From a virus (taxonomy: Duplodnaviria > Caudoviricetes): DNA of 24,929 bases. The DNA lies in IMG/VR virus record IMGVR_UViG_3300012948_000020, positions 1-24,929 of that record. One strand, 5' to 3'. Below the pieces are notes generated by a model. The model did no database searches and had not been told where the DNA came from. It saw only the letters and a list, made by a program, of their open reading frames with translations. A program made the translations under genes and the position numbers. This document shows, piece after piece, positions 381 to 20,918 of this stretch. Positions within the stretch are counted from its first letter, which is position 1. Every line of letters starts with the position of its first letter.

Positions 381-409
381 CGCAGAAATAACACGGGTTA
401 TAATGAGAG
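381..409 (+). promoter_or_regulatory. Repeated putative phage promoter motif, copy 1
   Basis: CGCAG-aaataacacgggtta-TAATGAGAG with a 15-nt spacer; the same motif recurs at five or more other sites. Confidence 0.75.
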
Positions 410-485
410 GGTAAAGAGTGTGGCCTCCGGCTGCCTCGTGCAATTAACGGCCTCCGGCTGTATTGCACACGCCCTCTCATTTTTT
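402..485 (+). ncRNA. Putative small structured RNA / terminated leader 1
   Basis: AATGAGAGGG (402-411) pairs with CCCTCTCATT (472-481), followed by a T-run. Internal GTGCAAT/ATTGCAC stem and two copies of GGCCTCCGGCTG. Confidence 0.6.
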
Positions 486-489
486 CTCG

Positions 490-518
490 CGCAGAAATAA
501 CATGGCTTTTAATGAGAG
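490..518 (+). promoter_or_regulatory. Repeated putative phage promoter motif, copy 2
   Basis: CGCAG-aaataacatggcttt-TAATGAGAG. Confidence 0.75.
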
Positions 519-593
519 AGTGACATGCCCGACGTTTAAGGGATACAGCGGCTACCGTCTAAGACCGTGTTCATGCACTCTCAATTTTTTTTT
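514..593 (+). ncRNA. Putative small structured RNA / terminated leader 2
   Basis: GAGAGTG-a-CATG (516-527) pairs with CATGCACTCTC (572-582), followed by T9. Confidence 0.6.
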
Positions 594-606
594 CGAAAGG
601 AGGTCT

Positions 607-816
607 ATGATCAGAGCAGTCGAGAACTTAGTAGTAGGAGACGTGTTCAAGATCGGAGATACTCCTGTCGTCGTTGCTGGATTCGCAAGATCGTCCGAAT
701 TCAGGAACACACACATCGAGCTTTCCTTAATGACTCTTTATAGTGACGGCGGGCGCACAATGAAGATGACTTTGGAAGTGCCTCGACAGTTCCTCGTCGA
801 GTTGTTCGAGACGTAA
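607..816 (+). CDS. Hypothetical protein, 69 aa (MIRAVENLVVGDVFKIG...)
   Basis: Strong RBS GAAAGGAGGT at 595-604 precedes ATG607, so I shortened the 463 ORF to this start. Confidence 0.75.
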   Translation: MIRAVENLVVGDVFKIGDTPVVVAGFARSSEFRNTHIELSLMTLYSDGGRTMKMTLEVPRQFLVELFET

Positions 817-818
817 AC

Positions 819-847
819 CGCAAGAATAACATGGCATATAATGAGAG
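819..847 (+). promoter_or_regulatory. Repeated putative phage promoter motif, copy 3
   Basis: CGCAA-gaataacatggcata-TAATGAGAG. Confidence 0.75.
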
Positions 848-896
848 GAAGGTTCAATTTGGAATCGTTCGCAGCTGGGACTGCGCCTCTCTTTTT
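843..896 (+). ncRNA. Putative small structured RNA / terminated leader 3
   Basis: GAGAGG (843-848) pairs with CCTCTC (886-891), followed by T5. Internal CGCAG-ctggga-CTGCG hairpin (870-885). Confidence 0.55.
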
Positions 897-915
897 ATTT
901 CCGAAAGGAGGTGTC

Positions 916-1059
916 ATGTACGTAGTCGTACAACAGAAGAGCTATGGCTTCTTCAGTTTCATCGGAGATGTCATCATGTTGTTTCTCACGGCAGGTCTGT
1001 GGTTGATCTGGATCTTCGTCCGTGAGATGAGAAGGAGGAACCAGTCCTATATTTTGTGA
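916..1059 (+). CDS. Small membrane protein, 47 aa
   Basis: RBS AAAGGAGGT precedes ATG916; hydrophobic segment DVIMLFLTAGLWLIWIFV. Confidence 0.75.
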   Translation: MYVVVQQKSYGFFSFIGDVIMLFLTAGLWLIWIFVREMRRRNQSYIL

Positions 1060-1065
1060 GCCATC

Positions 1066-1257
1066 ATGCAAAGACAGATCTTCTTCAAAAAACAGATGCT
1101 CGGCAAATGGCGCAGAACAGATGGGGACACAAGTAAGCACGTGAACGAAGAATCAATGTTCCGTGAGATCGAGAAGTTGGTCAACGATGGTTGGGTAGTA
1201 GAACCTCACGGAGTTACTCATGTCAGAGCAATCACGCTTACCCAAAATGAGAGGTAG
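1066..1257 (+). CDS. Hypothetical protein
   Basis: ORF fills the gap between flanking genes in a tightly packed operon. Confidence 0.6.
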   Translation: MQRQIFFKKQMLGKWRRTDGDTSKHVNEESMFREIEKLVNDGWVVEPHGVTHVRAITLTQNER

Positions 1258-1260
1258 CTT

Positions 1261-2049
1261 ATGAATTTGAGCGGATTGACAATGGTAGCAGGCAAGGCGA
1301 AGTACCTACTGAACGAGAACTCCACGACCATCCTTACGGCTGTAGGCGTCGCAGGCACAGTTGGGACAGCAGTTCTAAGCGGTCGTGCGTCGTTCAAAGC
1401 TGCAAGGATCCTTGCGGAAGAGCAGGCAAGAGAAAACGAGCGCGAAACAGGAAAGGAACTGACCAAGCTCGAGAAGGTTGTGGTCGTCTGGAAGTTGTAT
1501 ATTCCGCCGGTCGCAAGTGGTGTTGCTACGGTCGCTGCCATCATCGGAGCGAATCGCATCGCTTCTCGGAAGGTCGCTGCACTGACAGTAGCTGCGGGTT
1601 TGTCAGAACGAGCTCTACAGGAGTACAAGACGAAAGTGATCGAACGGATTGGCCAGCGAGATCATCAGAAGATCCGGGACGATATCGCTCAGGATCGTGT
1701 GAACGAGAACCCGATCGAATCGCAAGAAGTGATCATCATCGGAACAGGTGAAGCTCTCTTCTTCGACAACGCTACTGGGCGGTATTTCCAGAGCACGATG
1801 GAAAGTGTCAAAGCGGCTCAGAACAAGGTGAACTACAACATCACGCATTACATGTACTCGAGCCTGAGTGACTTCTATGACGAGATCGGTTTGCCTGGCA
1901 CAGCGTATACCGATTCCGTCGGATTCAACTCGGATCATCTGCTGGAGCTCGACTTCTCAGCGACGATCTCGACAGACAATCGACCGTGCATCGTGATCGA
2001 CTTCGTAAACCCTCCTATCTCGGGGTTCAACAGGTTCGACTACGATTGA
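1261..2049 (+). CDS. Conserved phage membrane-anchored protein (DUF6353-like), paralog 1
   Basis: N-terminal NSTTILTAVGVAG hydrophobic segment and C-terminal SLSDFYDEIGL...VGF; similar to 4383..5306. Family name is from recall. Confidence 0.8.
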   Translation: MNLSGLTMVAGKAKYLLNENSTTILTAVGVAGTVGTAVLSGRASFKAARILAEEQARENERETGKELTKLEKVVVVWKLYIPPVASGVATVAAIIGANRIASRKVAALTVAAGLSERALQEYKTKVIERIGQRDHQKIRDDIAQDRVNENPIESQEVIIIGTGEALFFDNATGRYFQSTMESVKAAQNKVNYNITHYMYSSLSDFYDEIGLPGTAYTDSVGFNSDHLLELDFSATISTDNRPCIVIDFVNPPISGFNRFDYD

Positions 2050-2089
2050 CTGGAAGACTGTACCGTCATAGCTCGTATGGAAAGGATAA

Positions 2090-2344
2090 ATGAATAAGCT
2101 CCTATATTCTGACGTCCTAACGCTCGTTCTCGGAGTAACTGTGGCGATCGCGTGGGGCGTCTATCTATGGTTGTTTCATGCTCCGTGGTACTACTGGTTC
2201 GTCGCAGGACCGTTTTGCCTTGCTCATGCTGTTCGAGCATTGTATTACATAATCCTGCCTGAGCCAAAGGGTCTAACAGAAGATGAAGCGCGAATTGCAG
2301 CGCGTGAATGGATGCGAGAGAACAATTTGGACAGACGCTGGTAG
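2090..2344 (+). CDS. Membrane protein with two TM segments
   Basis: RBS GAAAGGA; two hydrophobic stretches. Confidence 0.75.
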   Translation: MNKLLYSDVLTLVLGVTVAIAWGVYLWLFHAPWYYWFVAGPFCLAHAVRALYYIILPEPKGLTEDEARIAAREWMRENNLDRRW

Positions 2345-2355
2345 AAAGGAAATAA

Positions 2356-2889
2356 GTGCTCAAAAAGACCATCACGTATGAGGATTTCAACGGAGATACG
2401 GTCAGCGAGGATTTCTTCTTCCATCTATCGAAGGCCGAATTAGTCGAACTTGAGATGAGTCATGAAGGTGGTCTATCTGCATCGTTGGAACGAATCGTCG
2501 AGGCTCAAGACAATGCGGCCTTGATCAAGGAGTTCAAGAGCTTGATCTTGCTCTCGTACGGAAAGCGTTCGGACGACGGTAAACGGTTCATCAAGACACA
2601 AGAAGCACGTGACGAGTTCATATCGACGAACGCGTACGATGCATTGTTCATGGAGTTGGTTACCCAAACTGACAAAGCAGTCGAATTCGTCAACAGTGTG
2701 ATTCCAAAGGACCTACCCGAACTAGCGGAGCAGGTAAAAGTAACGAATCTGCAAGCTGCTCCAGAACCAGAAGTGCGGATCGTCACACCCGAAGAGATGG
2801 AGGCGATGTCCGCGGAAGAGCTTCAAGCGATCGGCCCGAAGATCCAGTCAGGTGAGGTGAGACTGGGTAAGAGCGGCCCGCAAGACTGA
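2356..2889 (+). CDS. Conserved phage hypothetical protein (MLKKTITYEDFNG...)
   Basis: RBS AGAAAGGA with GTG start; 177-aa ORF whose N-terminus is typical of this phage group (recall). Confidence 0.8.
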   Translation: MLKKTITYEDFNGDTVSEDFFFHLSKAELVELEMSHEGGLSASLERIVEAQDNAALIKEFKSLILLSYGKRSDDGKRFIKTQEARDEFISTNAYDALFMELVTQTDKAVEFVNSVIPKDLPELAEQVKVTNLQAAPEPEVRIVTPEEMEAMSAEELQAIGPKIQSGEVRLGKSGPQD

Positions 2890-2999
2890 GGATAACCGTA
2901 TAAGGGGCGACAAAAGGCGGGGACTCGTGGGAGAACCGCTGACAAATCGTCCGTCGGTCCCACGACTGAAAAGCGGATGTGTCCGCCGGTTATCTTCAG
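2886..2999 (+). ncRNA. Putative structured RNA with a 13-bp closing stem and possible double pseudoknot
   Basis: CTGAGGATAACCG (2886-2898)/CGGTTATCTTCAG (2987-2999); TCGTGGGA/TCCCACGA; CCGCT/AGCGG; GGGCGA/TCGTCC. Confidence 0.6.
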
Positions 3000-3004
3000 A
3001 CATT

Positions 3005-3033
3005 CGCAGCTATAACATGCCTTATAATGAGAG
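3005..3033 (+). promoter_or_regulatory. Repeated putative phage promoter motif, copy 4
   Basis: CGCAG-ctataacatgcctta-TAATGAGAG, upstream of the gene at 3057. Confidence 0.75.
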
Positions 3034-3056
3034 GCTATCTACTAAAAGGAGTATAG

Positions 3057-3317
3057 ATGTCAGGCCTTATTTCTATTGCCAAATTTGCTGCAACCACCGC
3101 TGCAAGTTTGAGTGTTGGAAAGGTCCTCAACGACATCATCAAGAATAACGTCACCATCACGACTCGCGTCGATAAGTACGCGGTCAACGTTGGTGGGTTC
3201 ATTCTCGGATCGATGATCGTTGACAAAGCCCGAGAACATCTCAACAAACAGTGGGAAGAAGCAGTTGAAGATTGGAAGAAAAGTAAGAGCGAGGCAGAAG
3301 CAGAAGAAGAGAAGTAA
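3057..3317 (+). CDS. Small putative membrane-associated protein in its own promoter-gene-terminator cassette
   Basis: RBS AAAAGGAG; flanked by motif copy 4 and a terminator. Confidence 0.8.
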   Translation: MSGLISIAKFAATTAASLSVGKVLNDIIKNNVTITTRVDKYAVNVGGFILGSMIVDKAREHLNKQWEEAVEDWKKSKSEAEAEEEK

Positions 3318-3322
3318 GTAGC

Positions 3323-3357
3323 AAAGGGAGAGTCCAAACTCGGACTCTCTCTTTTGT
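3323..3357 (+). terminator. Intrinsic terminator
   Basis: GGGAGAGTCC-aaactc-GGACTCTCTC followed by TTTTGT. Confidence 0.8.
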
Positions 3358-3376
3358 CTTCTAAATTAGGGGTAAA

Positions 3377-4015
3377 ATGGAGCAACCGGATTTTCCTCCA
3401 AATAGTGAGGCGAGTAGGAGAAATCTGCCCGAAAAAGACCTCGAGCGAATTACCACGAGTGAACCGGTTCGAAAACGAAGATCTCTTGGTAAGCAATTTA
3501 AGGACACATTTATAGGTGGCGACGTGAAATCTGCTGTCCGATACGTAGCAATGGATATTTTTCTTCCAGCAGCAAGAGACACGATCGTCGATGCATTCTC
3601 TGGCTGGATCGAGAAGCTGATCTATGGAGATTCGCGTCGATATCGTGGAACCACGCATCCACAGTCGGGACCAACTGGGTATGTCAGCTATAATAGATAT
3701 TCGGGTCCAATGGGGGGAAGCGCAAGTCGACTACCGTCCGCCCAGAGAGCACTAAGTCGTCAGGCTCGGGCTCGTCATGACTTCGATGAGATTGTGTTGG
3801 ACTCAAGAACAGAGGCCGAGCAAGTAATCGATCAAATGTTTGAGGTGGTGAATCGTTATGGATCCGCGACAGTTGCAGACCTCTACGAATTGGTGGGGCT
3901 TTCCAGTGCACACACAGACCACAAGTGGGGGTGGACGGACCTTTCTGGGGCTGGGGTTTCTCGGCTTCGCGATGGCTATCTACTGGATCTCCCGGACCCG
4001 ACGCCCCTCGACTGA
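3377..4015 (+). CDS. Conserved phage hypothetical protein
   Basis: 212-aa ORF; C-terminal YGSATVADLYELVG...TDHKWGW motif is typical of this phage group (recall). Confidence 0.8.
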   Translation: MEQPDFPPNSEASRRNLPEKDLERITTSEPVRKRRSLGKQFKDTFIGGDVKSAVRYVAMDIFLPAARDTIVDAFSGWIEKLIYGDSRRYRGTTHPQSGPTGYVSYNRYSGPMGGSASRLPSAQRALSRQARARHDFDEIVLDSRTEAEQVIDQMFEVVNRYGSATVADLYELVGLSSAHTDHKWGWTDLSGAGVSRLRDGYLLDLPDPTPLD

Positions 4016-4172
4016 GGACGTGAAGGAAGCGGGAGCAGAAGTAAAGGAAAAGGCCGCGCAGGTTCGGGACAAACTCGAGACCAAAAAGAATGAAGTAGTC
4101 AACGACGCGCTCGACGCAACACAGGAGAAGATCGACGATATTCGTAAAGAGGTAGGTGGTACTGACGTCTAA
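3858..4172 (+). CDS. Putative TM plus coiled-coil protein; start uncertain (3858, 3972 or 4020)
   Basis: Fills the 4016-4155 gap. GAGGTG lies upstream of ATG3858; TM segment FLGLGFLGFAMAIYWI is followed by a charged helical tail. Confidence 0.5.
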   Translation: MDPRQLQTSTNWWGFPVHTQTTSGGGRTFLGLGFLGFAMAIYWISRTRRPSTEDVKEAGAEVKEKAAQVRDKLETKKNEVVNDALDATQEKIDDIRKEVGGTDV

Positions 4173-4386
4173 ATCAGTCGAGATCAGAGAATTTGCTCAA
4201 CGTGTGGAACGCTTATGTGAGTTTCTTTTAACTTCGCTAGATGCAAAAGACAGCGGAACAACCGATGTTCTCGTGATCAAAAAGTTAAGAGAAGATGCGG
4301 CCGATATTCAGTTCAATCGGTCTGACATCACAAAATTCGATGGTCTCGATGATTTTATGAGAGGTTTAAATAAGGAGTCGACATGA
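4156..4386 (+). CDS. Hypothetical protein
   Basis: RBS AGAGGT; ATGA overlap with the next gene. Confidence 0.7.
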   Translation: MVLTSKSVEIREFAQRVERLCEFLLTSLDAKDSGTTDVLVIKKLREDAADIQFNRSDITKFDGLDDFMRGLNKEST

Positions 4387-5306
4387 ATCTTCTACCGGCA
4401 GCGATCAGCATAAAGATCGCTCGTACAGCATTAGTGGTTCAGAAGAACTCTCCCGAGATTCTCTTTGGCGCGGGCGTTGTTGGTTTTGTGGGAACCACGA
4501 TCCTGGCTTGCCGAGCCACATTGAGAGTCGACGATGTTCTGAATGAAGCAAAGAACAAGATGGATCTCACCAATACTTTGCAACATGACGATTACGACGA
4601 TAGAGATCGAGCACGAGATCGTACGCTTATTCGGTATCAAACGGCGGCAAAGATCGGTAAGGAATATGCTCCGGTGGTAATTTTGGGCATTGCTTCTATT
4701 GCTGCCCTTACACGATCGCACCAGATCTTGAATCAGCGTAATGCAGGTTTGGTGGCTGCGTACACTGCTCTTGATCGAGGGTTCAAGGAGTACCGAGCTC
4801 GAGTGATCGCGAAGTACGGAGCGGAGGCGGATCGGGATCTGCGATATGGCACTCGGGAGATTACTGTAGTAGACCCAGAGACGCAAGAGAGAACGACGAC
4901 TGTAAGTGCGGGTCTCGGCGCCGAATCGATCTACGCCAAGTTCTTCGACGAGAGCTCTTCGTCATGGAGCAGAGATCCAGAACTTAATCGGTTCTTCCTC
5001 CAGTCTCAGCAGAACTACGCGAACGATCAGTTGATCTCTCGTGGTCATATTTTCCTCAACGAAGTGTATGACCTGCTCGGTTTGGAGCGAACCTCGGCCG
5101 GATCTGTCGTTGGCTGGGTTGTCTCTCATGACGGCTCGACCGACAACAAAGTCGACTTCGGTATCTTCAACGAAGATAGTCAGGCGGCTCGAGATTTCGT
5201 CAACGGCTTCGAAGGAGCCATTCTACTCGACTTCAACGTCGATGGTGTGATCTACAATCTGATCGACACGCTACCTGAGGAGTTGCAATGGCAGCTGAAT
5301 CACTAA
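4383..5306 (+). CDS. Conserved phage membrane-anchored protein (DUF6353-like), paralog 2
   Basis: NSPEILFGAGVVG TM segment and FLNEVYDLLGL...VGW motif; RBS AAGGAG. Confidence 0.85.
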   Translation: MNLLPAAISIKIARTALVVQKNSPEILFGAGVVGFVGTTILACRATLRVDDVLNEAKNKMDLTNTLQHDDYDDRDRARDRTLIRYQTAAKIGKEYAPVVILGIASIAALTRSHQILNQRNAGLVAAYTALDRGFKEYRARVIAKYGAEADRDLRYGTREITVVDPETQERTTTVSAGLGAESIYAKFFDESSSSWSRDPELNRFFLQSQQNYANDQLISRGHIFLNEVYDLLGLERTSAGSVVGWVVSHDGSTDNKVDFGIFNEDSQAARDFVNGFEGAILLDFNVDGVIYNLIDTLPEELQWQLNH

Positions 5307-6064
5307 CGGCACAAGTTACAGAACAAGTAGCCGAGAATCTCGAGGAGACTGCTGCAGTTGTTCGAAAATTCGGCATCTCGAACGTCACATTTCTCGGCGT
5401 TGGACTTGCCGTGGGCGCAGCTGTCGGTTTCTACTTCGGACATCGCTTGATGAAAGAGAAACTTCGGGCCGAGGCTTTCAAGCAGAGTAACGAGGAGCTC
5501 GCAGAACTTCGTGAGATGTACTACAGCAAGCTCAAGGCGATGGAGCCAAAGCCGACTCTCGACGAGGTCGTGGAAGAAAAGGGATACGTCGTAGTCGAAG
5601 AAACAGAGCGACCAACGCGACCTCCGGTTCCAGTTGAGGAACCAAAGCTTACAGAAGAACAGCAGAAAGCAGTAGACGAGGTAAACCAAAGAAGACAAGA
5701 ACTAAATGACTCTCTTGTTTGGGATTACGAGAAAGAAGTTCGAAGTCGAAGCAAGAATCATCCTTACGTGATTCATCAGGATGAATACAACGAAAACACC
5801 GACGAATACCAGCAACTAACGTGGACGTATTACGCAAGTGACAATATTCTCGCCGATGAGAACGACGAACAAGTCAGTCGACCGGAGTTGATCGTCGGCT
5901 TGGAGAGTCTGATGAAGTTCGGACATGGTTCAGACGATTCCAACGTTGTGTTCGTTCGCAACGAACGTCTCGAGTTGGATTTCGAGGTTTGTCGCTTGTT
6001 TAAGAGCTACGTGGTAGAAGTGCAGGGGTTGGATGACACAGAGTCCAATGAGACGCAACCTTGA
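5288..6064 (+). CDS. Acidic membrane-anchored phage protein
   Basis: TM segment FLGVGLAVGAAVGFYFG followed by an acidic coiled coil; RBS GAGGAG. Confidence 0.8.
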   Translation: MAAESLTAQVTEQVAENLEETAAVVRKFGISNVTFLGVGLAVGAAVGFYFGHRLMKEKLRAEAFKQSNEELAELREMYYSKLKAMEPKPTLDEVVEEKGYVVVEETERPTRPPVPVEEPKLTEEQQKAVDEVNQRRQELNDSLVWDYEKEVRSRSKNHPYVIHQDEYNENTDEYQQLTWTYYASDNILADENDEQVSRPELIVGLESLMKFGHGSDDSNVVFVRNERLELDFEVCRLFKSYVVEVQGLDDTESNETQP

Positions 6065-6572
6065 TTATGAATATTACCGATGGCTAGTTCATCAAATCCA
6101 GATTCCCAGAGGCAATACCAACACGTATGAAGATCTGTTCTCGAGATTGCACGATACGGCGTTCGTCTTTGACGTAAGTCCATCTACAGCGGGTGATCAT
6201 AACAGACTACAAGACGCTCTCGATCTGCGTGTGGAGTTCATGCATGGAGCAGACATGATGTTGGAACATCCGGGATCGATGCTTGAGATCTTGATCGCCC
6301 TTAGCCGGAGAACTGCGTTTACCGGTGGTGGATATCCTCCAGTATGGGCGTGGAAGCTTCTCGAGAATCTCAAACTGAACAAGGCGTCCGATCCAATGGT
6401 TGGTGCAAAAGCTGACAGAGTTGAGGATATTCTCGAAGCTGTGATTTGGCGGACGTACGAGCCAAACGGTCAAGGTGGATTCTTCCCGTTGAAACACTCA
6501 ACCAAGGATCAAACCAAAGAAGAACTCTGGGTTCAGATGAACATGTACGTCACAGAAATGATGGGAGAATAA
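6033..6572 (+). CDS. Conserved phage hypothetical protein immediately upstream of the replicase
   Basis: 179-aa ORF with YYRWL...GGFFPL...ELWVQM motifs. Confidence 0.8.
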   Translation: MTQSPMRRNLDYEYYRWLVHQIQIPRGNTNTYEDLFSRLHDTAFVFDVSPSTAGDHNRLQDALDLRVEFMHGADMMLEHPGSMLEILIALSRRTAFTGGGYPPVWAWKLLENLKLNKASDPMVGAKADRVEDILEAVIWRTYEPNGQGGFFPLKHSTKDQTKEELWVQMNMYVTEMMGE

Positions 6573-6595
6573 AAATCCACAGACGTTAGGAGGGT

Positions 6596-9500
6596 TTGAT
6601 GGATTTTTATCAGATCCTCTCTAGAGAAACGAAAGATAAGGGTATTGAACTATACCCTGATTTCATCGTTAAACGCTCTCAGGATCTGATGGTTCAAGGA
6701 CGGACCTTTTATGCCATTTGGGATAAAGAAAAAGGTCTTTGGTCTCGCGATGAGTATGACGTTCAGCGACTTGTAGACGAAGAACTAGAGAGAGAAGCAA
6801 GTAGACTTCGTCAAGAAACGGGAATTAATTACGTGGTAAAATACATGCGCTCATTTCAAAGCAATACTTGGGCGCGATTCAAGCAATTCCTGGCTAATAT
6901 CAGCGACAATAATCATCCTCTCGATTCCAAGATTCTATTCTCGAATTCGGAGATACAGAAGAAGGATTATGCCAGTAGGCATCTGAGCTATCCCTTAGAA
7001 GAAGGCGATATTTCAGCGTGGGATGAGCTTGTTGGGACGTTGTATTCAGTGGAAGAACGAGCCAAAATCGAATGGGCTATCGGATCCATCGTGGCTGGAG
7101 ACTCGAAGAAAATCCAAAAGTTCTTCGTGTTCTATGGGCCCGCTGGATCCGGTAAGTCCACGATTTTGAACGTAATGCAAAAGTTGTTTGACGGCTACAC
7201 GACGACGTTCGATGGGAAAGCACTAGGGCGTGCGGATGGAACATTCGCCACGGAAGCCTTCAAACACAATCCCTTGGTCGCTATTCAACACGATGGTGAT
7301 CTGTCCAGACTTGAGGATAACACTCGGCTGAACTCGATCGTCTCGCACGAACAGATGACGATGAACGAGAAGTACAAGCCGAGTTATTCTGCAAGAGCGG
7401 ATGCATTGTTGTTTATCGGTACGAATCAACCGGTAAAAATCACAGATGCCAAATCAGGAATTATCCGTAGATTAGTAGACATACATCCTACTGGTGTAAG
7501 GATTCCGATCAGGCATTACCAAACCTTGCTGAGTCGAATCGAATTCGAGCTCGGAGCTATCGCTCAGCATTGTCTTCAAGTATATCTGGAAATGGGCAAG
7601 AACTACTACAACGGTTACCGCCCACTCGAGATGATGCTCCAAACCGACGTGTTCTTCAATTTTATCGAAGCCTACTACGATATTTTCAAATCACAAAACT
7701 ACACGACCTTGAAGCAAGCATACGGTCTGTACAAAGAGTTCTGCGGCGAGACCGGTATCGAGAGACCCTTGCCTCAGTACAAAATTCGTGAAGAGCTTCG
7801 TGATTACTTTGACGACTTCAAAGATCGAGGCGAGGTAGATGGAGAAAGAGTACGAAGTCTCTATACTGGATTTAATGCAGAAAAGTTTAAGGTTCCAAAA
7901 GAAACTGATAGCGATCTACCTGCATATTCTCTTGTTATGGATGAGACTAGTTCACTCCTTGATATTGAGTTTGCTGAACAGCCAGCTCAGTACGCAAATA
8001 AAGACGGAGTTCCAGGACGCAAGTGGGAAAACGTTAAACGAACTCTTTCAGATATTGAAACAACGCGTCTCCACTATGTTCGAGTACCCGAAAAACACAT
8101 CGTAATCGACTTCGACCTGAAAGAGCTCAATGGACAGAACAACGCCCTTGAACGTAACTTGGAAGCCGCAAGCAGTTGGCCAGCAACCTATGCCGAGCTT
8201 AGCCAATCTGGAAAAGGCGTACATCTCCATTATGAATATGAAGGAGATTCCGGTGAGCTGGCGACTACATATTCTGAGGGAATTGAGATCAAAGTATATT
8301 CAGGAGATGCATCATTACGAAGAAGACTCTCGCTCTGTAATTCCATTCCCGTTGCAGGAATCAGTAGCGGTCTCCCTCTCAAAAAGAAGAAGGAGAAGAT
8401 GCTTAAGGCCAAGACTATCACATCTGAAAAGGGTCTTAGGGATCTCATAGAACGAAATCTGAGGAAAGAGATCCATCCTGGCACCAAGCCATCTGTCGAC
8501 TTCATTGCTCATATTCTCGAGGAGGCCTATGAATCCAAGCTAAAGTACGACGTCACCGACATGCGTCCCCGTATTCTAGCGTTCGCCAATAACAGCACAC
8601 ATCAAGCATCGACTTGTTTGAAGACCGTTCAGAAGATGCACTTCCAATCAGAACCGGAAGTAGGTCCAGATGCTGTGGTAGAAGTAGACGATGATCGCAT
8701 GGTTATATTTGACGTTGAGGTGTATCCTAATCTCTTTGTCATTTGTTGGAAGTTTCGTGGAGACGACAACGTTGTAAGGATGATCAATCCGACACAAGCA
8801 GAAGTCGAGGCGCTAACGCGACTAAAACTTGTGGGTTTCTACAACCGTCGATTCGACAATCACATTCTGTACGCCGCTGTCTTGGGATATAGCATTCCGC
8901 AATTGTACGAACTTGCTCGAAAGATTGTCGTCGACAACAATCGAAATGCGCCGTTTGCTCAGGCGTACAATCTCTCTTACGCTGATGTCTGGGATTTCAG
9001 CTCGATCAAACAAGGCTTGAAGAAATTCGAGATCGATCTGGGAATCCATCACATGGAGTTGGACTTTCCGTTGAACGAACCCGTAGACGAGAAGGATTGG
9101 CCAAGAGTAGTCGAGTACTGTGTAAATGATGTGAGGGCAACAGAGGCAGTGCTCGAAGATCGATGGGAAGACTTCGTAGCCCGTCAGATTCTGGCCGAGC
9201 TCAGTGGGTTAACCGTCAACGACACGACACAAAGACACACAGCTAAGATCATATTTGGGGACGACAAGAATCCTCAACAATATTTTGTCTATACGGATCT
9301 AAGCGAGGAATTCAATGGCTATACGTTTGATGCTGGAGAGAGCCACTATCGAGGGGAAAACCCAGGTGAAGGTGGTTACGTTTACGCCGAACCTGGTATA
9401 TACAGTTCCGTTGCTCTACTTGACATCGCGTCTATGCATCCCACAACCATTGAAATACTCAATCTATTTGGTAAGTATACTGAAAAATTTGGAGATCTCA

Positions 9501-11118: not shown

Positions 11119-11126
11119 GACTTATC

Positions 11127-11444: not shown

Positions 11445-11470
11445 CCAAAACTATAGGGAGGGGTGATATT

Positions 11471-11653: not shown

Positions 11654-11660
11654 TCTAGCT

Positions 11661-11771: not shown

Positions 11772-11790
11772 TTATATTTAGGAGGACCGT

Positions 11791-12108: not shown

Positions 12109-12121
12109 ATTAGGAGAGACT

Positions 12122-12208: not shown

Positions 12209-12222
12209 TCTAAGGAGTTAAT

Positions 12223-12486: not shown

Positions 12487-12583
12487 GGCAGTTCTTCAAC
12501 CGTGGCAAATTCTAGCTTTTACTGGGTGGTTCATTGGTGTTGAAATCACGTGGATCATCATGAAAGCGAGAAGACAACGATGA
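12479..12583 (+). CDS. Membrane micro-protein, 34 aa (MIKAVLQPWQILAFTGWFIGVEITWIIMKARRQR)
   Basis: Not in the ORF track; AAGGAG upstream; overlap-coupled at both ends. Confidence 0.5.
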   Translation: MIKAVLQPWQILAFTGWFIGVEITWIIMKARRQR

Positions 12584-12687
12584 ACGACTGGGCATTAGTA
12601 GTGCTCATTCTCGGTCTCTGGTGGGGGTTTGTCATTTTATTCGTCGCTGCAGCTTTCGTTAGTACAACGCGACGAAAGATGACTTGA
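12580..12687 (+). CDS. Membrane micro-protein, 35 aa (MNDWALVVLILGLWWGFVILFVAAAFVSTTRRKMT)
   Basis: Not in the ORF track; ATGA coupling; clear TM segment with a basic tail. Confidence 0.6.
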   Translation: MNDWALVVLILGLWWGFVILFVAAAFVSTTRRKMT

Positions 12688-12959
12688 TGAAGAGAAAGCC
12701 GAAGGTCGGAGACCGGATCAAATTCGGTGAGTATCTTGGAATCGTGACGAGTGTGGAACTTCGACATTTCGTCACAATCGACATCACCAACGGCGTGTCA
12801 GAACGTTTGCAGATGAGTCATGTCGATAGCAAGGGAATCGAATTGGTAACGGAGGAAAAACGTGCCAATCAGGCGAGTCAAAGGCGGGTACCAGTACGGA
12901 AGCAGCGGGAAAGTATACAGAGGCAAGGGAGCGAAGAGCAGAGCGTCGAAGCAGGGTAG
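12684..12959 (+). CDS. Hypothetical protein with an SH3/KOW-like N-terminus
   Basis: KVGDRIKF...GIVTSV pattern; coupled to the previous stop. Confidence 0.6.
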   Translation: MMKRKPKVGDRIKFGEYLGIVTSVELRHFVTIDITNGVSERLQMSHVDSKGIELVTEEKRANQASQRRVPVRKQRESIQRQGSEEQSVEAG

Positions 12960-13002
12960 AGCAATCAAAGCCAATCAAGCAAGACAGAAGAAGAAATCAT
13001 GA
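12862..13002 (+). CDS. Small highly basic protein, 46 aa (MPIRRVKGGYQYGSSGKVYRGKGAKSRASKQGRAIKANQARQKKKS)
   Basis: Not in the ORF track; GGAGG at 12851-12855 precedes GTG12862; resembles a widespread small phage protein (recall). Confidence 0.7.
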   Translation: MPIRRVKGGYQYGSSGKVYRGKGAKSRASKQGRAIKANQARQKKKS

Positions 13003-13082
13003 GCTGGATCATCTGGTTGGTCATCATCGTCTTGGTTCTCATGTTTCTCTTCTGGGTGATTACAAGACGGTCGCAGAAATAA
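12999..13082 (+). CDS. Membrane micro-protein, 27 aa (MSWIIWLVIIVLVLMFLFWVITRRSQK)
   Basis: ATGA-coupled; single TM segment with a basic tail. Confidence 0.6.
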   Translation: MSWIIWLVIIVLVLMFLFWVITRRSQK

Positions 13083-13100
13083 CATGTACTATAATGAGAG
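13072..13100 (+). promoter_or_regulatory. Repeated putative phage promoter motif, copy 5
   Basis: CGCAG-aaataacatgtacta-TAATGAGAG. Confidence 0.75.
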
Positions 13101-13141
13101 AGCTGAACGTTTTGAGGTGCTACCTAACGCTCTCTTTTTTT
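13096..13141 (+). ncRNA. Putative small RNA / terminated leader 4
   Basis: GAGAGC (13098-13103)/GCTCTC (13129-13134) followed by T7. Confidence 0.5.
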
Positions 13142-13160
13142 CTTGCTCTCTTTTTTTCTT
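13129..13160 (+). repeat. Exact 16-bp tandem duplication, GCTCTCTTTTTTTCTT x2
   Basis: Read directly: 13129-13144 equals 13145-13160. Confidence 0.9.
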
Positions 13161-13272
13161 CGATTTTCCCAAGTTTGGTAAGCGAAGAGGGAGGATGCCT
13201 TACGTAGACAATCTGCGGCCCAGATGTGTTAGGCCAGGGTCATTGTAAAGCCATACAGGAGGGTATGACCTA

Positions 13273-15195
13273 ATGACCGCAGTAAGAAAGGTGCGACGTC
13301 ACCGTAAGCCGTTGGGGTTTGCGGCGGCGTTTGTGACACTTTCTGCAATTCTGGTGTTTGCGTTCGCCTCGAGCGCACTCATCGGTAGCAGTAACTTCGA
13401 AGGAAACGACGGGAATCTCGTCGTGAACGGAGCCGGTCATACTGACTGGGACAATGCTCCGAATCTGACTTCCGCCCAGGATCAGGAGCGGAGCCAAACT
13501 GACAACTCGTTCGGACAGGGCACGAAGGAAGACAACGTGAACGTTACTGTTGTCTCGGGCTCGATTCCGAATTCGAAGGCCGACCTCGCACGCTATGCAA
13601 CTGCTGGTGAGGTCATCAACGGCGAAACGTATCTCTATCTTGCGTGGAGCCGTGCCAACCAGTCCGGAACGGTCAACTTCGACTTCGAGCTGAATCAGCT
13701 GGCTCAGCCAGATCTGACAACGCCTGGAGCGAAGGTGCTGAACCGGATGGCGGGTGATGCTCTGATCAACTACTCGTTCCAGGGTGGAAGCAACACGCCG
13801 ACGCTCACGAGGCGATCGTGGACCGGCAGCGCCTGGGGACCAGAGGTTCCGATCAGTGGCACCTGTTCTGAGGGAGCAACAAACAGCTCCCCGGTTCTTG
13901 ACACGCTCGGTGGGCGACCGCCGGTTAGCCGTCCTGCTCAGCAGTTCGGTGAGGCCGCGATCAACCTCGTATGTGCTGGAATCGTTCAGCCGAACGCATG
14001 CGAGCCGTTCACGTCGTCGTACGTGAAGTCCCGCTCTTCGACAGCGTTTACGTCGGAGATCAAGGATTTCGTGGCGCCGATTCCGTTGAACTTCTCGAAC
14101 TGTGGTCGGGTGATCATTCGAAAGCAGACCGATCCCAATGGTGCTACTCAGTCGTTCGGATACCATAAATCATTCACCACACAGCCTGCAACAGGGAACA
14201 CATTCTCGTTGCAGGACGATGGTGTTCAGAACTTCACTGGGGTGCAACAGGCAAGTGGTCTGACCGTGAGCGAAGATCCGGCGCCACCTGGCTGGGACTT
14301 CGATCATGTGGACTGCTCGGCATCAACGGGCGTAAGTCCGACAATCAACGGAGCATTGGTGACGTTTGCCATCGACAATGCTTCCGATATTCTCGACTGC
14401 ACCTACTTCAACCGCAGTCGAGGCACGATCATCCTCAAGAAGGTGACCGATAGCGGCAACGGCAGCTTCCTGTTCACATCTGGTACGCTGCCCGGTGCCC
14501 CATTCACACTCACCACAACCGGTGCAGGTGAAGCTGGATCTGCTTCGCAGACGATCAGCGATCTCGTTCCTGGTGTGTATGATGCAGCTGAGCAGGTCCC
14601 TGCCAACTGGCATATCGTCGGAACACCGTCTTGTGACGACAATAGTTCCCCGGCGGCAATCAGCCTGCAGGGTGGCGAGACCGTCACTTGTACGTGGCAC
14701 GACGACCGTGATGTGGGAGCGATCGACATCTCCAAGCTGCGTAAGCATGCAGCTGACGGACCTGGCGATCACCCGCAGTCGGGCGTTCAGTTCCAGGTGC
14801 TGCTCGGCGGTAACGTCGTCGGTAGTGCTACGACTGACTCGAGTGGCCATGCTTGTGTGAGTGGTCTTCTCGTCTCGGCGTTCGCTGGTGACTACACGGT
14901 CCACGAGATCCTGCCTTCTGGTTATCACGGAGAAGCAGACAAGACCGTGACTGTCGTTACGTCGACTGGCTGCGGTGACGAGCCGAATGACGACGCGGAT
15001 GTCACGTTCCACAACACACCACTGACGAACGTAACCGTCTCGATCGATTCTCAGGTCGTTGGCGGCACGGCGTCGACGGTGGACTGCGACAACAACGACC
15101 TCGACTTCTCGACCGGGGCCGGTGGGGATGGTTCACAGACGGCGAACAATCAGGAACCGCAGACCATCCATTGCACGATCGTAGTCGATCCGTAA
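13273..15195 (+). CDS. Secreted beta-rich protein with CnaB/SpaA (pilin, prealbumin-fold)-like repeats
   Basis: Basic then hydrophobic signal peptide; repeats with I.I.K...E...TF/Y.N/D pattern and paired Cys; RBS AGGAGG. Confidence 0.8.
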   Translation: MTAVRKVRRHRKPLGFAAAFVTLSAILVFAFASSALIGSSNFEGNDGNLVVNGAGHTDWDNAPNLTSAQDQERSQTDNSFGQGTKEDNVNVTVVSGSIPNSKADLARYATAGEVINGETYLYLAWSRANQSGTVNFDFELNQLAQPDLTTPGAKVLNRMAGDALINYSFQGGSNTPTLTRRSWTGSAWGPEVPISGTCSEGATNSSPVLDTLGGRPPVSRPAQQFGEAAINLVCAGIVQPNACEPFTSSYVKSRSSTAFTSEIKDFVAPIPLNFSNCGRVIIRKQTDPNGATQSFGYHKSFTTQPATGNTFSLQDDGVQNFTGVQQASGLTVSEDPAPPGWDFDHVDCSASTGVSPTINGALVTFAIDNASDILDCTYFNRSRGTIILKKVTDSGNGSFLFTSGTLPGAPFTLTTTGAGEAGSASQTISDLVPGVYDAAEQVPANWHIVGTPSCDDNSSPAAISLQGGETVTCTWHDDRDVGAIDISKLRKHAADGPGDHPQSGVQFQVLLGGNVVGSATTDSSGHACVSGLLVSAFAGDYTVHEILPSGYHGEADKTVTVVTSTGCGDEPNDDADVTFHNTPLTNVTVSIDSQVVGGTASTVDCDNNDLDFSTGAGGDGSQTANNQEPQTIHCTIVVDP

Positions 15196-15202
15196 ACACG
15201 AT

Positions 15203-15715
15203 TCTCCGGAAGCGCGAGGGAATCCGCCGGAGATAGGGAGGGGTGCCCATAACCACACACTAGTGGGCAAGCATCCCTCCCGCGCGTTTTTCCGTCCTAT
15301 GGTCTAAGGTAGATGGTTGCGAACGGCGCAACTCACGGATAAAACTGAGTTCACAGTAGCATAGGAATCTGTGAGCCAATCCGGTAGTAAGGAAAGCGAA
15401 AGTTCACTTGCAAGGGGCGAGTAGCTTGTAGTTCCAGAATCCGGCGGTACGAGAGGTCGTTATTACAATCAGCGCCAAGCTGAGCTACTCTCGTTAGCTC
15501 AGTCCTTTCGTAGTGGTCTCAGGCATGCGGGCATCGTATCGGGCTTTTCAAAGCATGCAGGGTGAGACGTCGATAGGCCCGAGCGGGCTCACCCATAAAA
15601 TTTAAAGCTTAGATGAGAGGATAAGGGAGACATCTAAGGATAGGGCGGCTCTATCATTTCCGCAAGCCCGAACCCCCTAGATTCTTTTCACTGCGGCGTG
15701 AAGAGGCTAGGGGGT
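15203..15715 (+). ncRNA. Array 1 of back-to-back structured RNA elements
   Basis: About 520 nt with no credible ORF, tiled by stems: TCTCCGG/CCGGAGA, GGGAGGGGTGC/GCATCCCTCCC, TCCTATG/CATAGGA, GCTGAGCTA/TAGCTCAGT, GTCTCA/TGAGAC, CTTAGATG/CATCTAAG and ACCCCCTAG/CTAGGGGGT. Confidence 0.6.
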
Positions 15716-15735
15716 AGGCATTAATTGGGGGATAA

Positions 15736-16150: not shown

Positions 16151-16306
16151 ATGGCAGAGCTGGAGAACGGTCTAATCGAGCATGTGAAGAAAGTTCGGAT
16201 GGCTGAGACTTTGGCAAAAGATGGGCTTTCCGCTGAAGAAATTGCCAAAGCCATGGGTATCAGCGAAGCTAGTGTCCGTTTTCTTTTGAGCGAAACAACT
16301 AAATGA
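16151..16306 (+). CDS. Stand-alone HTH protein, 51 aa
   Basis: Not in the ORF track; GGAG upstream; DGLSAEEIAKAMGISEASVRFLL is a canonical HTH. Confidence 0.75.
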   Translation: MAELENGLIEHVKKVRMAETLAKDGLSAEEIAKAMGISEASVRFLLSETTK

Positions 16307-17996: not shown

Positions 17997-18193
17997 TGCT
18001 TGGTCCTCCTACATGGACATGTCACGTGTGCGGTAAAGAGCGTCCGGATGACAAGATCTCTGTATATTCACAAACGACAATGGAGCATGGCGTTGAAATT
18101 CAGCAAAATGTTCGCTATTGCAACGACAATCCGAAATGTGTGGAAGGTGCTAAGACGATTAGGTGGTTTGATAATGGAGAGGAAAGTGGGTAA
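17990..18193 (+). CDS. Zinc-binding protein
   Basis: WTCHVC...YCNDNPKC; RBS GAGG. Confidence 0.7.
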   Translation: MVMLGPPTWTCHVCGKERPDDKISVYSQTTMEHGVEIQQNVRYCNDNPKCVEGAKTIRWFDNGEESG

Positions 18194-18335
18194 GTGCCCT
18201 TCGTGTGGAGAAGAGCTGAAAAAAGTTGGGCAGTTTAGACCCGAGGGAGAAGCACCTAAAGGTCGATACAAGTGTATGAACTCCGAATGTTCCGAACGAG
18301 GCTGGTTCAATAGACAAGGAGAGCGGAGATCATGA
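18174..18335 (+). CDS. Zinc-ribbon protein, 53 aa
   Basis: CPSC...CMNSEC; AGGTGG upstream of ATG18174. Confidence 0.65.
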   Translation: MERKVGKCPSCGEELKKVGQFRPEGEAPKGRYKCMNSECSERGWFNRQGERRS

Positions 18336-18670
18336 GTGATAGAGAAGGACGCTTAGAAGTTCAAGGTATCGTCTCCATGAAAACCGATGAACCGATGGTC
18401 CAATTTCGTCAGCTCGAGCGTTCTCCCGGGACGGAATGGGAAACAGTCGCCGAATGGCAGGCCGTTGTCTCCGATGCGCGAGAGATGGCTCAGCAAGTTC
18501 TCGAAGCAGCGATGAATGCCACCTATGACGCAGCACTGGTAGGGTGGGTAAAGGAAAACTGGCCTGACGATTGGCAAGAGATGGTTGGACCGCTACTTAC
18601 ACAAATTCGTAGATACCGCGCTGACACGTGGGGACTTCCCGATCAACCGGAGGATTGGCGTAATGGCTGA
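18332..18670 (+). CDS. Hypothetical protein
   Basis: RBS GGAG; ATGA coupling. Confidence 0.75.
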   Translation: MSDREGRLEVQGIVSMKTDEPMVQFRQLERSPGTEWETVAEWQAVVSDAREMAQQVLEAAMNATYDAALVGWVKENWPDDWQEMVGPLLTQIRRYRADTWGLPDQPEDWRNG

Positions 18671-18845
18671 ACCTAAGACCGAAATCGAAAAGCGTCTGGA
18701 CAGGCAGGATCTGGCAATCCGGACGATGGCTCATTGGCTTCACGAGGCTCAAACTGGATTTGGTGCCCAAGACGTCCTAGGAATTGAAGGCATTCTAGAT
18801 GGAACTAAAAGCGCATCAGAAGATAGCACTAGCTCAGCTGACTAA
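18663..18845 (+). CDS. Hypothetical protein (MAEPKTEIEKRLDRQD...)
   Basis: GGAGG precedes ATG18663. Confidence 0.65.
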   Translation: MAEPKTEIEKRLDRQDLAIRTMAHWLHEAQTGFGAQDVLGIEGILDGTKSASEDSTSSAD

Positions 18846-19995
18846 CGGCACGATCCTGTGGGGCGGCGTGGGGGCCGGAAAGTCTGCGGTCGCAGTCGAG
18901 TACTACCTGCGATACGAGAAGCCCAAGGACGTGTACGTGATCACAACAGCCAAGAAGCGCGATGAATTGGACTGGGACAAAGAATTTGTCGAGCGTGGGG
19001 TGAGTAAGCATGAAAGAGGAAAAGATACCGGACTCCTACATGTTGATAGCTGGAATAACCTCCACAAGTACCGAGATGTCGAAGAAGCTTTCTTCATCTT
19101 TGACGAGCAAAGACTGGTCGGCAGTGGTACATGGGTGCGATCCTTCCTTCGAGTTGCCCGAAACAATCGATGGATTCTTCTCACTGCAACCCCAGGGGAC
19201 ACATGGCTGGACTATATCCCTGTATTCGTCGCTAACGGGTTCTATAAGAATAGAACTCAGTTCAAAAGAGAGCACGTCGTTTACAAACCGTATTCGAAAT
19301 TTCCTAAGGTCGATCGCTATCTGGACGAGACACGGCTAGAAAAATACCGAGATCAGATATTAGTGAAGATGCCGTATCCGAAGATGACGGTTAGGCATCC
19401 ACACACAGAATGGGTTGGTTACAACGAATCTCTGTTGGAAAATGTCGTCAAAACCCGGTGGCACATCTACCAAAACAGGCCAATAAAAGATATTGCAGAG
19501 CTGTGGATCGTTATGAGAAGGGTGATCAACAGCGATCCAAGTCGCGTCAGGCGCATAGGAGAGCTTCTAAACATCCATCCGAAGCTGGTGGTATTCTATA
19601 ACTTTGACTACGAACTAGAGCTTCTACGGGGCTTACAACGCGACGTAGCGGTATCTGAGTGGAACGGTCACAAGCACGAGCGCATTCCGACCGCCAGTTC
19701 GTGGGCATACCTGGTACAGTACGTAGCAGGCTCCGAAGGGTGGAATTGTGTAGAAACCAATGCCATATCCTTCTACAGTCTTACCTATTCTTACAAAACC
19801 TGGGAACAGGCGCATGGGAGAATAGATCGTCTGAACAGTCCTTTCATAGATCTGTACTACTATACCCTGAGAAGTAAGTGCTGGGTAGATGACGCCATCT
19901 GGAAGAGCCTGAAAGCCAAGAAAAACTTCAATACGAGCCAATATGACGTCGAAAATCTTGGCATCTTGGCAAATAAAAAAGCTGATTTGGCTTAA
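18799..19995 (+). CDS. SF2 (SNF2-like) DNA helicase
   Basis: Motifs GGVGAGKS, FIFDEQR, LLTATP, SEGWN and QAHGRIDR. Confidence 0.9.
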   Translation: MELKAHQKIALAQLTNGTILWGGVGAGKSAVAVEYYLRYEKPKDVYVITTAKKRDELDWDKEFVERGVSKHERGKDTGLLHVDSWNNLHKYRDVEEAFFIFDEQRLVGSGTWVRSFLRVARNNRWILLTATPGDTWLDYIPVFVANGFYKNRTQFKREHVVYKPYSKFPKVDRYLDETRLEKYRDQILVKMPYPKMTVRHPHTEWVGYNESLLENVVKTRWHIYQNRPIKDIAELWIVMRRVINSDPSRVRRIGELLNIHPKLVVFYNFDYELELLRGLQRDVAVSEWNGHKHERIPTASSWAYLVQYVAGSEGWNCVETNAISFYSLTYSYKTWEQAHGRIDRLNSPFIDLYYYTLRSKCWVDDAIWKSLKAKKNFNTSQYDVENLGILANKKADLA

Positions 19996-20285
19996 ACAAG
20001 CGGTTTGAGCGTGTAAGGATTTGCCCAGAAAAATCGATCCGAAACTTTATGGGGGATTGAGTGTAATATCTATATAGCCCATAACCTACGTATTCTCTAA
20101 CCCTACGCGCACGGAGAATAGATATTAGGTTAAACGCTATAGAAAGTTCTTTGACGTTTTTTCTTGGCAAGGCCAAAAAGTGAGTTTTTAGCTCAACCAC
20201 AAAGAAAATCGAGCAAAAACAGCTGAAAAAAAATCTTGGCAACGATCTTGGCAAATATCTTTTTATAGGAGGAAAACAATAAAAA
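19956..20285. repeat. Putative replication origin with five TCTTGGCA iterons in AT-rich DNA
   Basis: TCTTGGCA at 19956, 19964, 20162, 20234 and 20246; A/T tracts; non-coding from 19996. Confidence 0.5.
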
Positions 20286-20382
20286 CCACCCACAAGGCTC
20301 GCGCAGGTTTCTCAAGGCCTTTAAAAGAAAATCGGCCCGCAAAGCCGTCGCCTTTTCCCAAGGGCCCTAATAGGAGAAAAGT

Positions 20383-20880
20383 ATGGAAGAACAATGGAGA
20401 CCGATAGCGGATTTCCCTGGATACAGCGTCAGTAATCTAGGAAACGTGCGCACTGACAAGTCTGGGAGAATCTTACGCCTAAACGCCAACCAATTCGGCG
20501 TTCTTCAAGTAGGAATGATGCGAGATGGAACCCAATACCACAGATCCGTCCCACTCCTGGTGGCCAAGGCTTTTATTCCTCAGCCTCTTGGGCCTTTTGA
20601 TACTCCTATTAACCTTAACGGTGATCGTCACAATAACGAAGTAGACAATCTAGCATGGCGTCCAAGGTGGTTTGCGATCAAGTACAACCAGCAATTTCGT
20701 TATTCATACCCCCACCACATTCCAATGCCGATCATCGATCTCAACACACGAGAGATCAGTGAGAATTCGCTAGATTGTGCTATGCGTTACGGTCTTCTCG
20801 AGGAAGATCTGGTAATGTCTATCCTAAATCGCACCTATGTTTTCCCAACTTATCAAGAATTTGGCGTTTATGAGGAATAG
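20383..20880 (+). CDS. NUMOD4-domain protein with a degenerate HNH module
   Basis: EQWRPIADFPGYSVSNLGNVR (NUMOD4); INLNGDRHNNEVDNL lacks the first His of the HNH motif. Confidence 0.8.
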   Translation: MEEQWRPIADFPGYSVSNLGNVRTDKSGRILRLNANQFGVLQVGMMRDGTQYHRSVPLLVAKAFIPQPLGPFDTPINLNGDRHNNEVDNLAWRPRWFAIKYNQQFRYSYPHHIPMPIIDLNTREISENSLDCAMRYGLLEEDLVMSILNRTYVFPTYQEFGVYEE

Positions 20881-20889
20881 ATATTAGTT

Positions 20890-20918
20890 CGTAGCCACTA
20901 CGTAGAATATAATGAGAG
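20890..20918 (+). promoter_or_regulatory. Repeated putative phage promoter motif, copy 6 (variant)
   Basis: CGTAG-ccactacgtagaata-TAATGAGAG, followed by a weak AGAGGTAG/CTATCTTT stem and a T-run. Confidence 0.6.

Follow-up and report, generated by a model that had tools for sequence, protein, structure and literature searches.

The window analysed here is a 24,929-nt stretch of DNA (positions 1 to 24,929 of the IMG/VR record IMGVR_UViG_3300012948_000020; Duplodnaviria, Caudoviricetes) that corresponds to the non-structural half of a member of the phage supercluster comprising 1706, FP_oengus and actinophages. It harbors six copies of a three-block sequence motif, all on the + strand, together with a gene (21778..24516, +) for a 912-aa single-chain two-barrel RNA polymerase-like protein. 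The evidence presented below suggests that the motif is a promoter-like element of this phage family, most likely read by the phage polymerase.

The first-pass annotation of this DNA had placed copies of the motif at 381, 490, 819, 3005, 13072 and 20890, with exactly 15 nt between the outer blocks, and positions, spacing and + strand orientation were all verified. These six are the sole occurrences of TAATGAGAG in the 24.9-kb window, and the pattern count was 0 in 100 dinucleotide shuffles of it. Copies 1 to 6 (380..409, 490..518, 819..847, 3005..3033, 13072..13100 and 20890..20918, respectively) scored 36.4, 31.7, 34.1, 33.3, 37.2 and 17.7 bits. As had been described, TAACA is present in the spacer of the first five copies and TATAAT in five of the six, the copy at 490 reading TTTAAT. 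No TTGACA box accompanies them (the best match at a spacer of 16-18 nt was 1-3 of 6 positions), and a sigma-70 scan of positions 1-14000 called none of the five motif copies in that range. A weaker copy had also been proposed at 20302 (20302..20330, +), upstream of an HNH gene (20383-20880). With a less biased position weight matrix, the hexamer columns of which were taken from flank-selected sites, it did rank seventh at 15.8 bits, compared to 6.4 bits for the next site and a 95th percentile of 15.5 bits for the null maxima; with a matrix trained on TATAAT it fell below the cut-off of 12, and we regard it as a borderline, degenerate seventh copy. Copy 6 precedes an operon composed of a VRR-Nuc-type endonuclease gene (20962-21279), an exonuclease gene (21224-21781; both within 20962..21781, +) and the polymerase gene, and a copy at this site is kept in Moozy, ReqiPoco6 and FP_oengus.

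The polymerase-like protein matches phrog_4291 (E=0), with GADFDGD at residues 516-522 and helix-turn-helix (HTH) modules near residues 44-66, 85-115 and 882-912. Its family comprises at least 8000 homologues, and DFDGD was intact in all 62 that were aligned (62 of the 120 listed). A structure model was built from this 62-sequence alignment (predicted local distance difference test score, pLDDT, 78; predicted template modelling score, pTM, 0.63) and replaced a poor single-sequence fold (pLDDT 42). Its best match among solved structures was QDE-1 (E 2e-8), followed by P23-45 gp64, P74-26 gp62, RDR2 and gp96, and a PDB sequence search returned nothing below E 0.27.

Related loci were gathered by pattern scans; a locus search with a single protein yielded no confirmed locus. 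Across the family, the motif reads TCGCA-N6-ACA-N5-TATA-RTGAGA, with fixed spacing and a single orientation, and it sits before non-structural genes and structured RNAs of 36-187 nt. Around 1100 IMG/VR stretches contain CGCA-N14-TATAATGAGA, as extrapolated from 7 of 64 parts of the collection. In columns that had not been used for selection (200 unique sites), T preceded CGCA in 87% of cases, and A, C and A of the spacer were found in 74, 93 and 83%. When no downstream selection was applied, positions +1..+4, counted after the hexamer, were purines, most commonly GAGA (75 of 213). A spacer one base shorter was found in 82 stretches of the entire collection, with no downstream bias, versus about 1700 for the regular spacing. 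The annotated relatives Moozy, ReqiPoco6, 1706 and FP_oengus carry 8, 14, 12 and 14 copies, respectively, all on the coding strand and none within the structural module, except for chance-level matches in FP_oengus. Start codons mostly lie 22-38 nt 3′ of the motif, behind a ribosome-binding site (RBS). Within 185,579 prokaryote genomes (596 Gb), the 29-base form was detected in only 27 stretches, mostly from metagenome-assembled genomes, and for 25 of these the contig did not exceed about 60 kb. A promoter for a phage polymerase would be expected to recur in one orientation upstream of a class of genes, to be missing from host chromosomes, and to be accompanied by an intact two-barrel polymerase in the same genome, and all of these features were found.

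We also examined how often motif and polymerase occur together, taking one locus per contig from contigs of at least about 35 kb, which yielded two sets of 46 and 30 motif records and 22 controls with the one-base-shorter spacer. The phrog_4291 family was present in 39/46 and 27/30 motif records (66/76 in total) and in 2/22 controls. When only records at least 90% complete were considered, the values were 27/28 and 15/17 (42/45 in total) versus 0/7. Phages that carry the motif and lack the polymerase, which the first-pass annotation had named as evidence against its reading, were not found among complete relatives; this shows only that the motif belongs to the clade, since no complete relative without the polymerase gene turned up at all, with or without the motif. 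Three apparent cases were rejected. Two of them (G040 and G092) contain one copy each and no family primase-polymerase, and were attributed to chance; the third (G074), with four copies, stops 5.3 kb past its primase-polymerase gene and was likely cut short. In this last record, the primase-polymerase lies within a 1770-aa open frame (C1:41771-47020) with an insertion of about 490 aa, possibly an intein. Because the polymerase is a core gene, any core phage protein would score alike, and co-occurrence cannot prove that the polymerase reads the motif.

A central question was whether TATAAT acts here as a host −10 box. The hexamer was sampled by its flanks only, which gave 214 sites; 124 were perfect, 79 had one or two changes, and 11 with three or more changes were dropped as likely chance. 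Changes at positions 1-6 among the 79 variant sites numbered 13, 24, 5, 17, 29 and 5, and position 5 was a purine in 207 of the 214 sites. In sigma-A −10 boxes, positions 1, 2 and 6 are fixed, position 2 being the most conserved. This pattern was not observed here, since position 2 was among the most variable ones, while position 6 was well kept. In FP_oengus, 11 of 14 geometry-matched copies (16 pattern matches, of which two were judged chance; null mean 2.3) read CGCG-N14-CTTTAT-G and none contained TATAAT, and in Lactococcus phage 1706, TATAGT was present in 11 of 12 copies. At 420 sites, at least four of six matches to a −35 TTGACA at 16-18 nt were seen in 22 cases compared to 38 for a shifted control, and the TG of an extended −10 was present in 17, which is no signal. 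Given the hexamer variation pattern, the CTTTAT and TATAGT forms, the lack of −35 and extended −10 elements and the rarity of the motif in prokaryote genomes, the sequences indicate that TATAAT is probably not a host −10 box in this context.

These data bear on an explanation that we consider unlikely, in which the host sigma-A holoenzyme uses TATAAT as its −10 box and a phage activator is bound at the CGCA box some 30 bp upstream. The activator could be the HTHs of the 912-aa protein or a stand-alone 51-aa HTH protein encoded in the window (16151..16306, +), which resembles the polymerase HTHs and might itself read the motif, either to regulate it or in competition with the polymerase. Such an arrangement would account for the fixed upstream box without a −35, for TATAAT being the commonest hexamer and for its conservation across hosts of two phyla. 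At T4 middle promoters, MotA binds a box upstream of the −10. Of this combination, the upstream box is present here, but the hexamer fails the sigma tests, and its variation pattern, together with CTTTAT in FP_oengus, conflicts with recognition by sigma-A. The near absence of the motif from host chromosomes and the intact DFDGD in 62/62 homologues likewise speak against this explanation, as does the predicted transcription start.

The start was judged from pairing and from Shine-Dalgarno positions. Pairing units were defined as closed units that end in a T tract and have a 3′ end complementary to the bases after the hexamer. Among 503 sites, 73 such units were recovered with the real anchors, compared to 6-13 per permutation with swapped-anchor decoys. 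When only +5..+12 served as anchor, C was the partner of G at +1..+4 in 24 of 51 cells, compared to 6 of 53 for A (p=7e-5). Since it is G, and not A, that faces C at these positions, GAGA lies in the RNA; the earlier proposal that GAGAG is transcribed was thus upheld across the relatives. The last T of the hexamer faced A in 29 of 66 dereplicated units versus 9 of 66 for the T three bases upstream (p=2e-4), and A was found at the partner position in 34 of 73 real units compared to 14 of 79 decoys. This last-T pairing was present in 19/61 units of the TATAAT set and 21/57 of the TATAGT set. Where it forms, C faced position 5 in 7/21 TATAGT units and in 0/19 TATAAT units (p=0.009), and homologous RNAs of two loci show a compensatory change (ATG...CAT in L007, GTG...CAC in L787). 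As a weaker point, 12 of 240 gene-leading sites (one of them an RNA unit and two duplicates) have a Shine-Dalgarno sequence at +1..+6, which argues against a sigma-A start because such a start would cut it. A start about 7 nt 3′ of the hexamer is not supported by either measure. Transcription likely begins on the purine of RTG, with the G that follows as a possible alternative, and both are incompatible with a sigma-A start at that distance. On the simplest reading, transcription in the window would begin on the purine at 403 (A of ATG; alternatively 405), 512, 841, 3027, 13094 and 20912 for copies 1 to 6, respectively. Leaderless or in-frame use of the ATG in TAATGAGA was also considered and rejected, as start codons showed no frame preference.

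A start inside the hexamer would also be compatible with a phage promoter read by the host core enzyme and an unrecognised phage sigma-like factor, the 912-aa enzyme being reserved for late genes in the manner of YonO, the polymerase of Bacillus prophage SPbeta. The position of one copy before the polymerase's own operon, the lack of copies at structural genes, the late-gene role of YonO and the fact that the temperate FP_oengus must begin its lytic programme with a host enzyme are in line with this possibility, which we nevertheless judge quite improbable. No sigma-like gene was seen in the 26 window proteins scanned or in four annotated relatives, and no sigma class known to us directs the host core enzyme to initiate so close to the box, at a distance of one base. 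In addition, homologues of the polymerase in ReqiPoco6 (gp106) and 1706 (gp75) bear the GenBank label 'structural protein', which would allow injection of the enzyme.

With regard to the products of these putative promoters, copies 1, 2, 3 and 5 of the window lead into closed units of 58-83 nt, copy 4 into a gene, and copy 6 into a short hairpin. The first-pass annotation had stated that the GAGAG block pairs with the 3′ end of the unit downstream. This holds strongly at 381 (fold z-score −6.5) and modestly at 490, 819, 13072 and 20890 (z −1.6 to −2.1), and fails at 3005 and 20302 (z −0.12 and −0.36, respectively), the former copy running directly into an RBS and a gene. The first unit (403..485, +) is a predicted structured RNA of about 83 nt, closed by pairing of 403-412 to 471-480, and contains two GCC-UCC-GGC hairpins and a T tract (480-485) that leads into copy 2. 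It has one homologue (L321/L1039), which adopts the same three-way fold with changed stems; a search for further relatives returned 12 stretches, namely this known homologue and 11 without an upstream box. The second unit (512..593, +; z −2.1), predicted to be a structured RNA or a leader, terminates in T9, and an RBS and an open reading frame (ORF, 607-816) come next. The third (841..900, +; z −1.9) is a predicted RNA or leader with the entire closing stem GAGAGG/CCUCUC, after which come a T tract, an RBS and ORF 916-1059; its fold energy was −18.0 kcal/mol when begun at 841 versus −9.8 kcal/mol from a sigma-A-type start. Behind copy 4 lies a leader without a significant fold and with an RBS for ORF 3057-3317 (phrog_7539), the first of the genes that reach the primase-polymerase, for which a 1261-aa window protein matches the family. 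A strong 13-pair terminator-like hairpin (3323-3354) directly follows that first gene and may limit read-through into the replication genes. The unit behind copy 5 (13094..13160, +) is a predicted RNA with a GAGAGAGC stem, whose 16-nt 3′ end is tandemly duplicated (13129-13144 and 13145-13160); with this duplicated arm and its T tract (13129-13160), the 5′ end can pair with either repeat. Copy 6 is followed by a short hairpin with T6 (20937-20942) and then by the RBS of the VRR-Nuc / exonuclease / polymerase operon. A scan of the window RNA units against Rfam 15 gave no matches at the gathering score, and no transfer RNA (tRNA) was found in the window.

Among the relatives, 66 units of 36-187 nt were delimited. 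A new motif copy directly follows 21 of them, 25 run into an RBS and start codon, and 20 do neither or are cut short. Units followed by a new promoter copy are likely free small RNAs, and the remaining closed ones may be leaders or attenuators. In several relatives, tRNA or degenerate tRNA-like genes lie directly behind the motif (L010, 327-399; L570; L497; L749; FP_oengus, record 2933; 1706, record 31074; ReqiPoco6, record 42692), some of them with leader-trailer pairing. A further RNA of about 100-130 nt recurs behind the motif in gut and soil relatives (L007:323-445, +; L029, L152, L168, L497, L549, L785, L787, L871, L979 and L1022) and in ReqiPoco6 near record 43122, and is absent from the window. 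It combines covarying stems with an AGACACG block and a TTCG-TGG loop, and matched no Rfam family at the gathering score in the members scanned. The loop could pair back as a pseudoknot; a test of this was circular, given that the family had been chosen by the same motifs, and was not used as evidence. In another relative (L021), a pistol ribozyme that scored 35.3 bits and thus exceeded the gathering score maps to 364-414, just 3′ of a promoter-hairpin unit.

The arrangement of these units also bears on whether the repeat is a promoter at all. Copies cluster in a variable small-gene region, often directly after a T tract, as in the 21 of 66 units that enter the next copy, and this would suit a protein-binding or recombination site (an operator, a replication iteron or a mobile-cassette crossover) with hairpins acting in the DNA. 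Against such a role stand the strict one-strand orientation with the genes, the non-palindromic motif, the placement of start codons mostly 22-38 nt 3′ behind an RBS, and the tRNA or tRNA-like genes directly behind copies, and we regard it as very improbable.

Taken together, we are fairly confident that the motif is a real promoter-like element, specific to phages and shared across the family, and that the phage's single-chain polymerase is its most likely reader. The phage-polymerase interpretation put forward in the first-pass annotation is thereby supported by hexamer variation, CTTTAT in FP_oengus, pairing up to the last T and co-occurrence with the DFDGD protein. The initiating enzyme is inferred: its assignment to the 912-aa protein is based on elimination, the intact active site and HTHs, and the precedent of Thermus phage P23-45. 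In the proposed mechanism, this polymerase would read the motif and start on the purine of TATA-RTGAGA, inside a bacterial −10 look-alike. Relative to the predicted start, TCGCA at −23..−19 and ACA at −12..−10 are likely contacted by the built-in HTHs, TATA at −4..−1 is likely melted, and RUGAGA would be the first RNA made. Many copies would give rise to RNAs of 36-187 nt closed by pairing between the 5′ end and a U-rich 3′ end. Such closure would likely protect the RNA, because 5′-end-dependent decay should be hindered when the 5′ end is sequestered in a stem; this would explain why pairing extends right up to the start. The pairing may also end or attenuate transcription. Because one copy heads the polymerase's own operon, the first round of transcription would need either a virion-carried enzyme or host read-through.

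Several observations weigh against this interpretation. The polymerase was found in 250 phage records compared to 253 for the primase-polymerase, with a nearly equal host breakdown, as expected of a core gene. The actinophage-type copies carry the perfect host consensus hexamer in 124/214 sites. Last-T pairing occurs in fewer than half of the units; with the most independent anchor (+5..+12), the TATAGT set gave no last-T signal (2/17), and the compensatory count dropped to 3/14 versus 0/15 under a stricter anchor. Of 10 changes at the last T, 9 are to C, as would suit a start on the next G with a pyrimidine preceding it, and hairpins that arose by DNA inverted duplication could extend past a start by a base or two. 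Finally, YonO, the relative with published tests, transcribes late genes (PMC5467207), whereas no motif copy lies in the structural modules of Moozy, ReqiPoco6 and 1706.

Further sequence features touch on how the enzyme might reach the cell. A 27-position N-terminal profile of the polymerase weakly matched six ReqiPoco6 head-region frames and one of Moozy (E 0.05-0.6). In seven relatives (G024, G033, G043, G050, G058, G059 and G061), second genes match just the first 80-140 positions of phrog_4291 and lie mostly near the opposite genome end. The shared N-terminal segment may be a packaging tag, and, along with the 'structural protein' labels, the resemblance hints at an injected early enzyme. 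A more extensive scenario, which we advance tentatively and would not yet favor as a whole, is that of a virion-carried, sigma-free one-chain polymerase whose three-block promoter is read by its own HTHs, with a start inside a TATAAT look-alike. In this scenario, thousands of phages from soil, gut and dairy sources would use it to express an early, unannotated set of small RNAs with sealed ends, among them tRNA mimics, triloop decoys and a conserved RNA with a pseudoknot, for host takeover.

The window contains additional features outside the motif-associated units. A gene at 11791-12108 encodes an Rpf-like transglycosylase domain (PF06737, E 2e-16), which suggests an actinobacterial host. Downstream of copy 5, a 640-aa gene (13273-15195) with a signal-like N-terminus, SpaA prealbumin-like repeats and no PHROG match looks like a host-derived surface or secreted protein. 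It is followed by about 540 nt (15196-15735) in which no clear gene is seen on the + strand; this stretch has many inverted repeats, no Rfam match at the gathering score and no motif copy. After the helicase gene, an AT-rich non-coding gap (19995-20300) with recurring CTTGGC words and runs of T and A is a candidate replication origin. The sequence TAGATATTAG occurs at 20120 and again just before copy 6.

Regarding earlier work, the first-pass annotation had surmised that similar repeats might already be known in related phages, which proved right. In cluster DJ Gordonia phages, members of the same supercluster, intergenic repeats that precede ATG start codons beyond the tail genes were suggested to be regulatory; the passages of that report drawn on here give no sequence, promoter call, start site or polymerase link (PMC9753669). 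The phrog_4291 protein of the 1706 / FP_oengus / AM-AU-AW-BI-CC-DJ-EL supercluster was described as a putative RNA polymerase, its activity being proposed, and the 912-aa protein is a member of that family, with DxDGD and HTHs at both ends (Koert et al., bioRxiv 10.1101/842583). The words 'promoter' and 'transcription' are absent from the whole text of that preprint (bioRxiv 10.1101/842583). Neither the motif nor its link to the polymerase was found in the literature covered, which did not include the original ReqiPepy6/Poco6 and 1706 papers, either of which may describe the repeat. Likewise, the consulted parts of PMC5513430, PMC13313380, PMC7302621, PMC9671017, PMC12859696, PMC13432834, PMC8525569, PMC5883640 and PMC11385150 contain nothing on either. 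The enzyme family and the repeats are thus separately in print; the present analysis contributes a quantitative argument for the start site, the hexamer of FP_oengus and the cassettes of small RNAs. With a defined promoter and a predicted start base, promoter finding without sigma by single-chain two-barrel polymerases, a point left open for YonO, becomes testable with one protein and one oligonucleotide, and cultured family members exist on laboratory strains of Streptomyces, Gordonia, Arthrobacter and Lactococcus. The system is a potential compact orthogonal expression system for Gram-positive hosts. More generally, a perfect TATAAT need not mean a host promoter, and dozens of unannotated phage small RNAs are indicated.

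Among characterized systems, Thermus phage P23-45 encodes the single-chain two-barrel enzymes gp64 and gp96, each with its own repeated motif upstream of early genes (PMC10770324). The fold and the pairing of a phage enzyme with its own motif are alike, whereas sequence identity is 12-15% and the motifs differ; P23-45 has two enzymes, one of them fused to the tape measure, compared to a single enzyme here, which has three HTHs, and a motif of three blocks that spans about 29 bp (PMC10770324). YonO is a similar single-chain two-barrel enzyme of about 100 kDa with the same aspartate triad, but it uses a single start to transcribe late genes, and the report on it left open which promoter and factors it requires, while many copies here mark non-structural genes and small RNAs (PMC5467207). 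With sigma-70/sigma-A and T4 middle promoters, the motif shares TATAAT and a fixed upstream box in place of a −35; the pattern of conservation, the spacing of 14, CTTTAT and the predicted start differ. T7-type promoters are multi-copy and private, with a conserved sequence across the start, an AT-rich stretch before it and purine-rich first bases. The predicted layout of the motif is like theirs, but the polymerase fold is unrelated, so that the resemblance is convergent at most.

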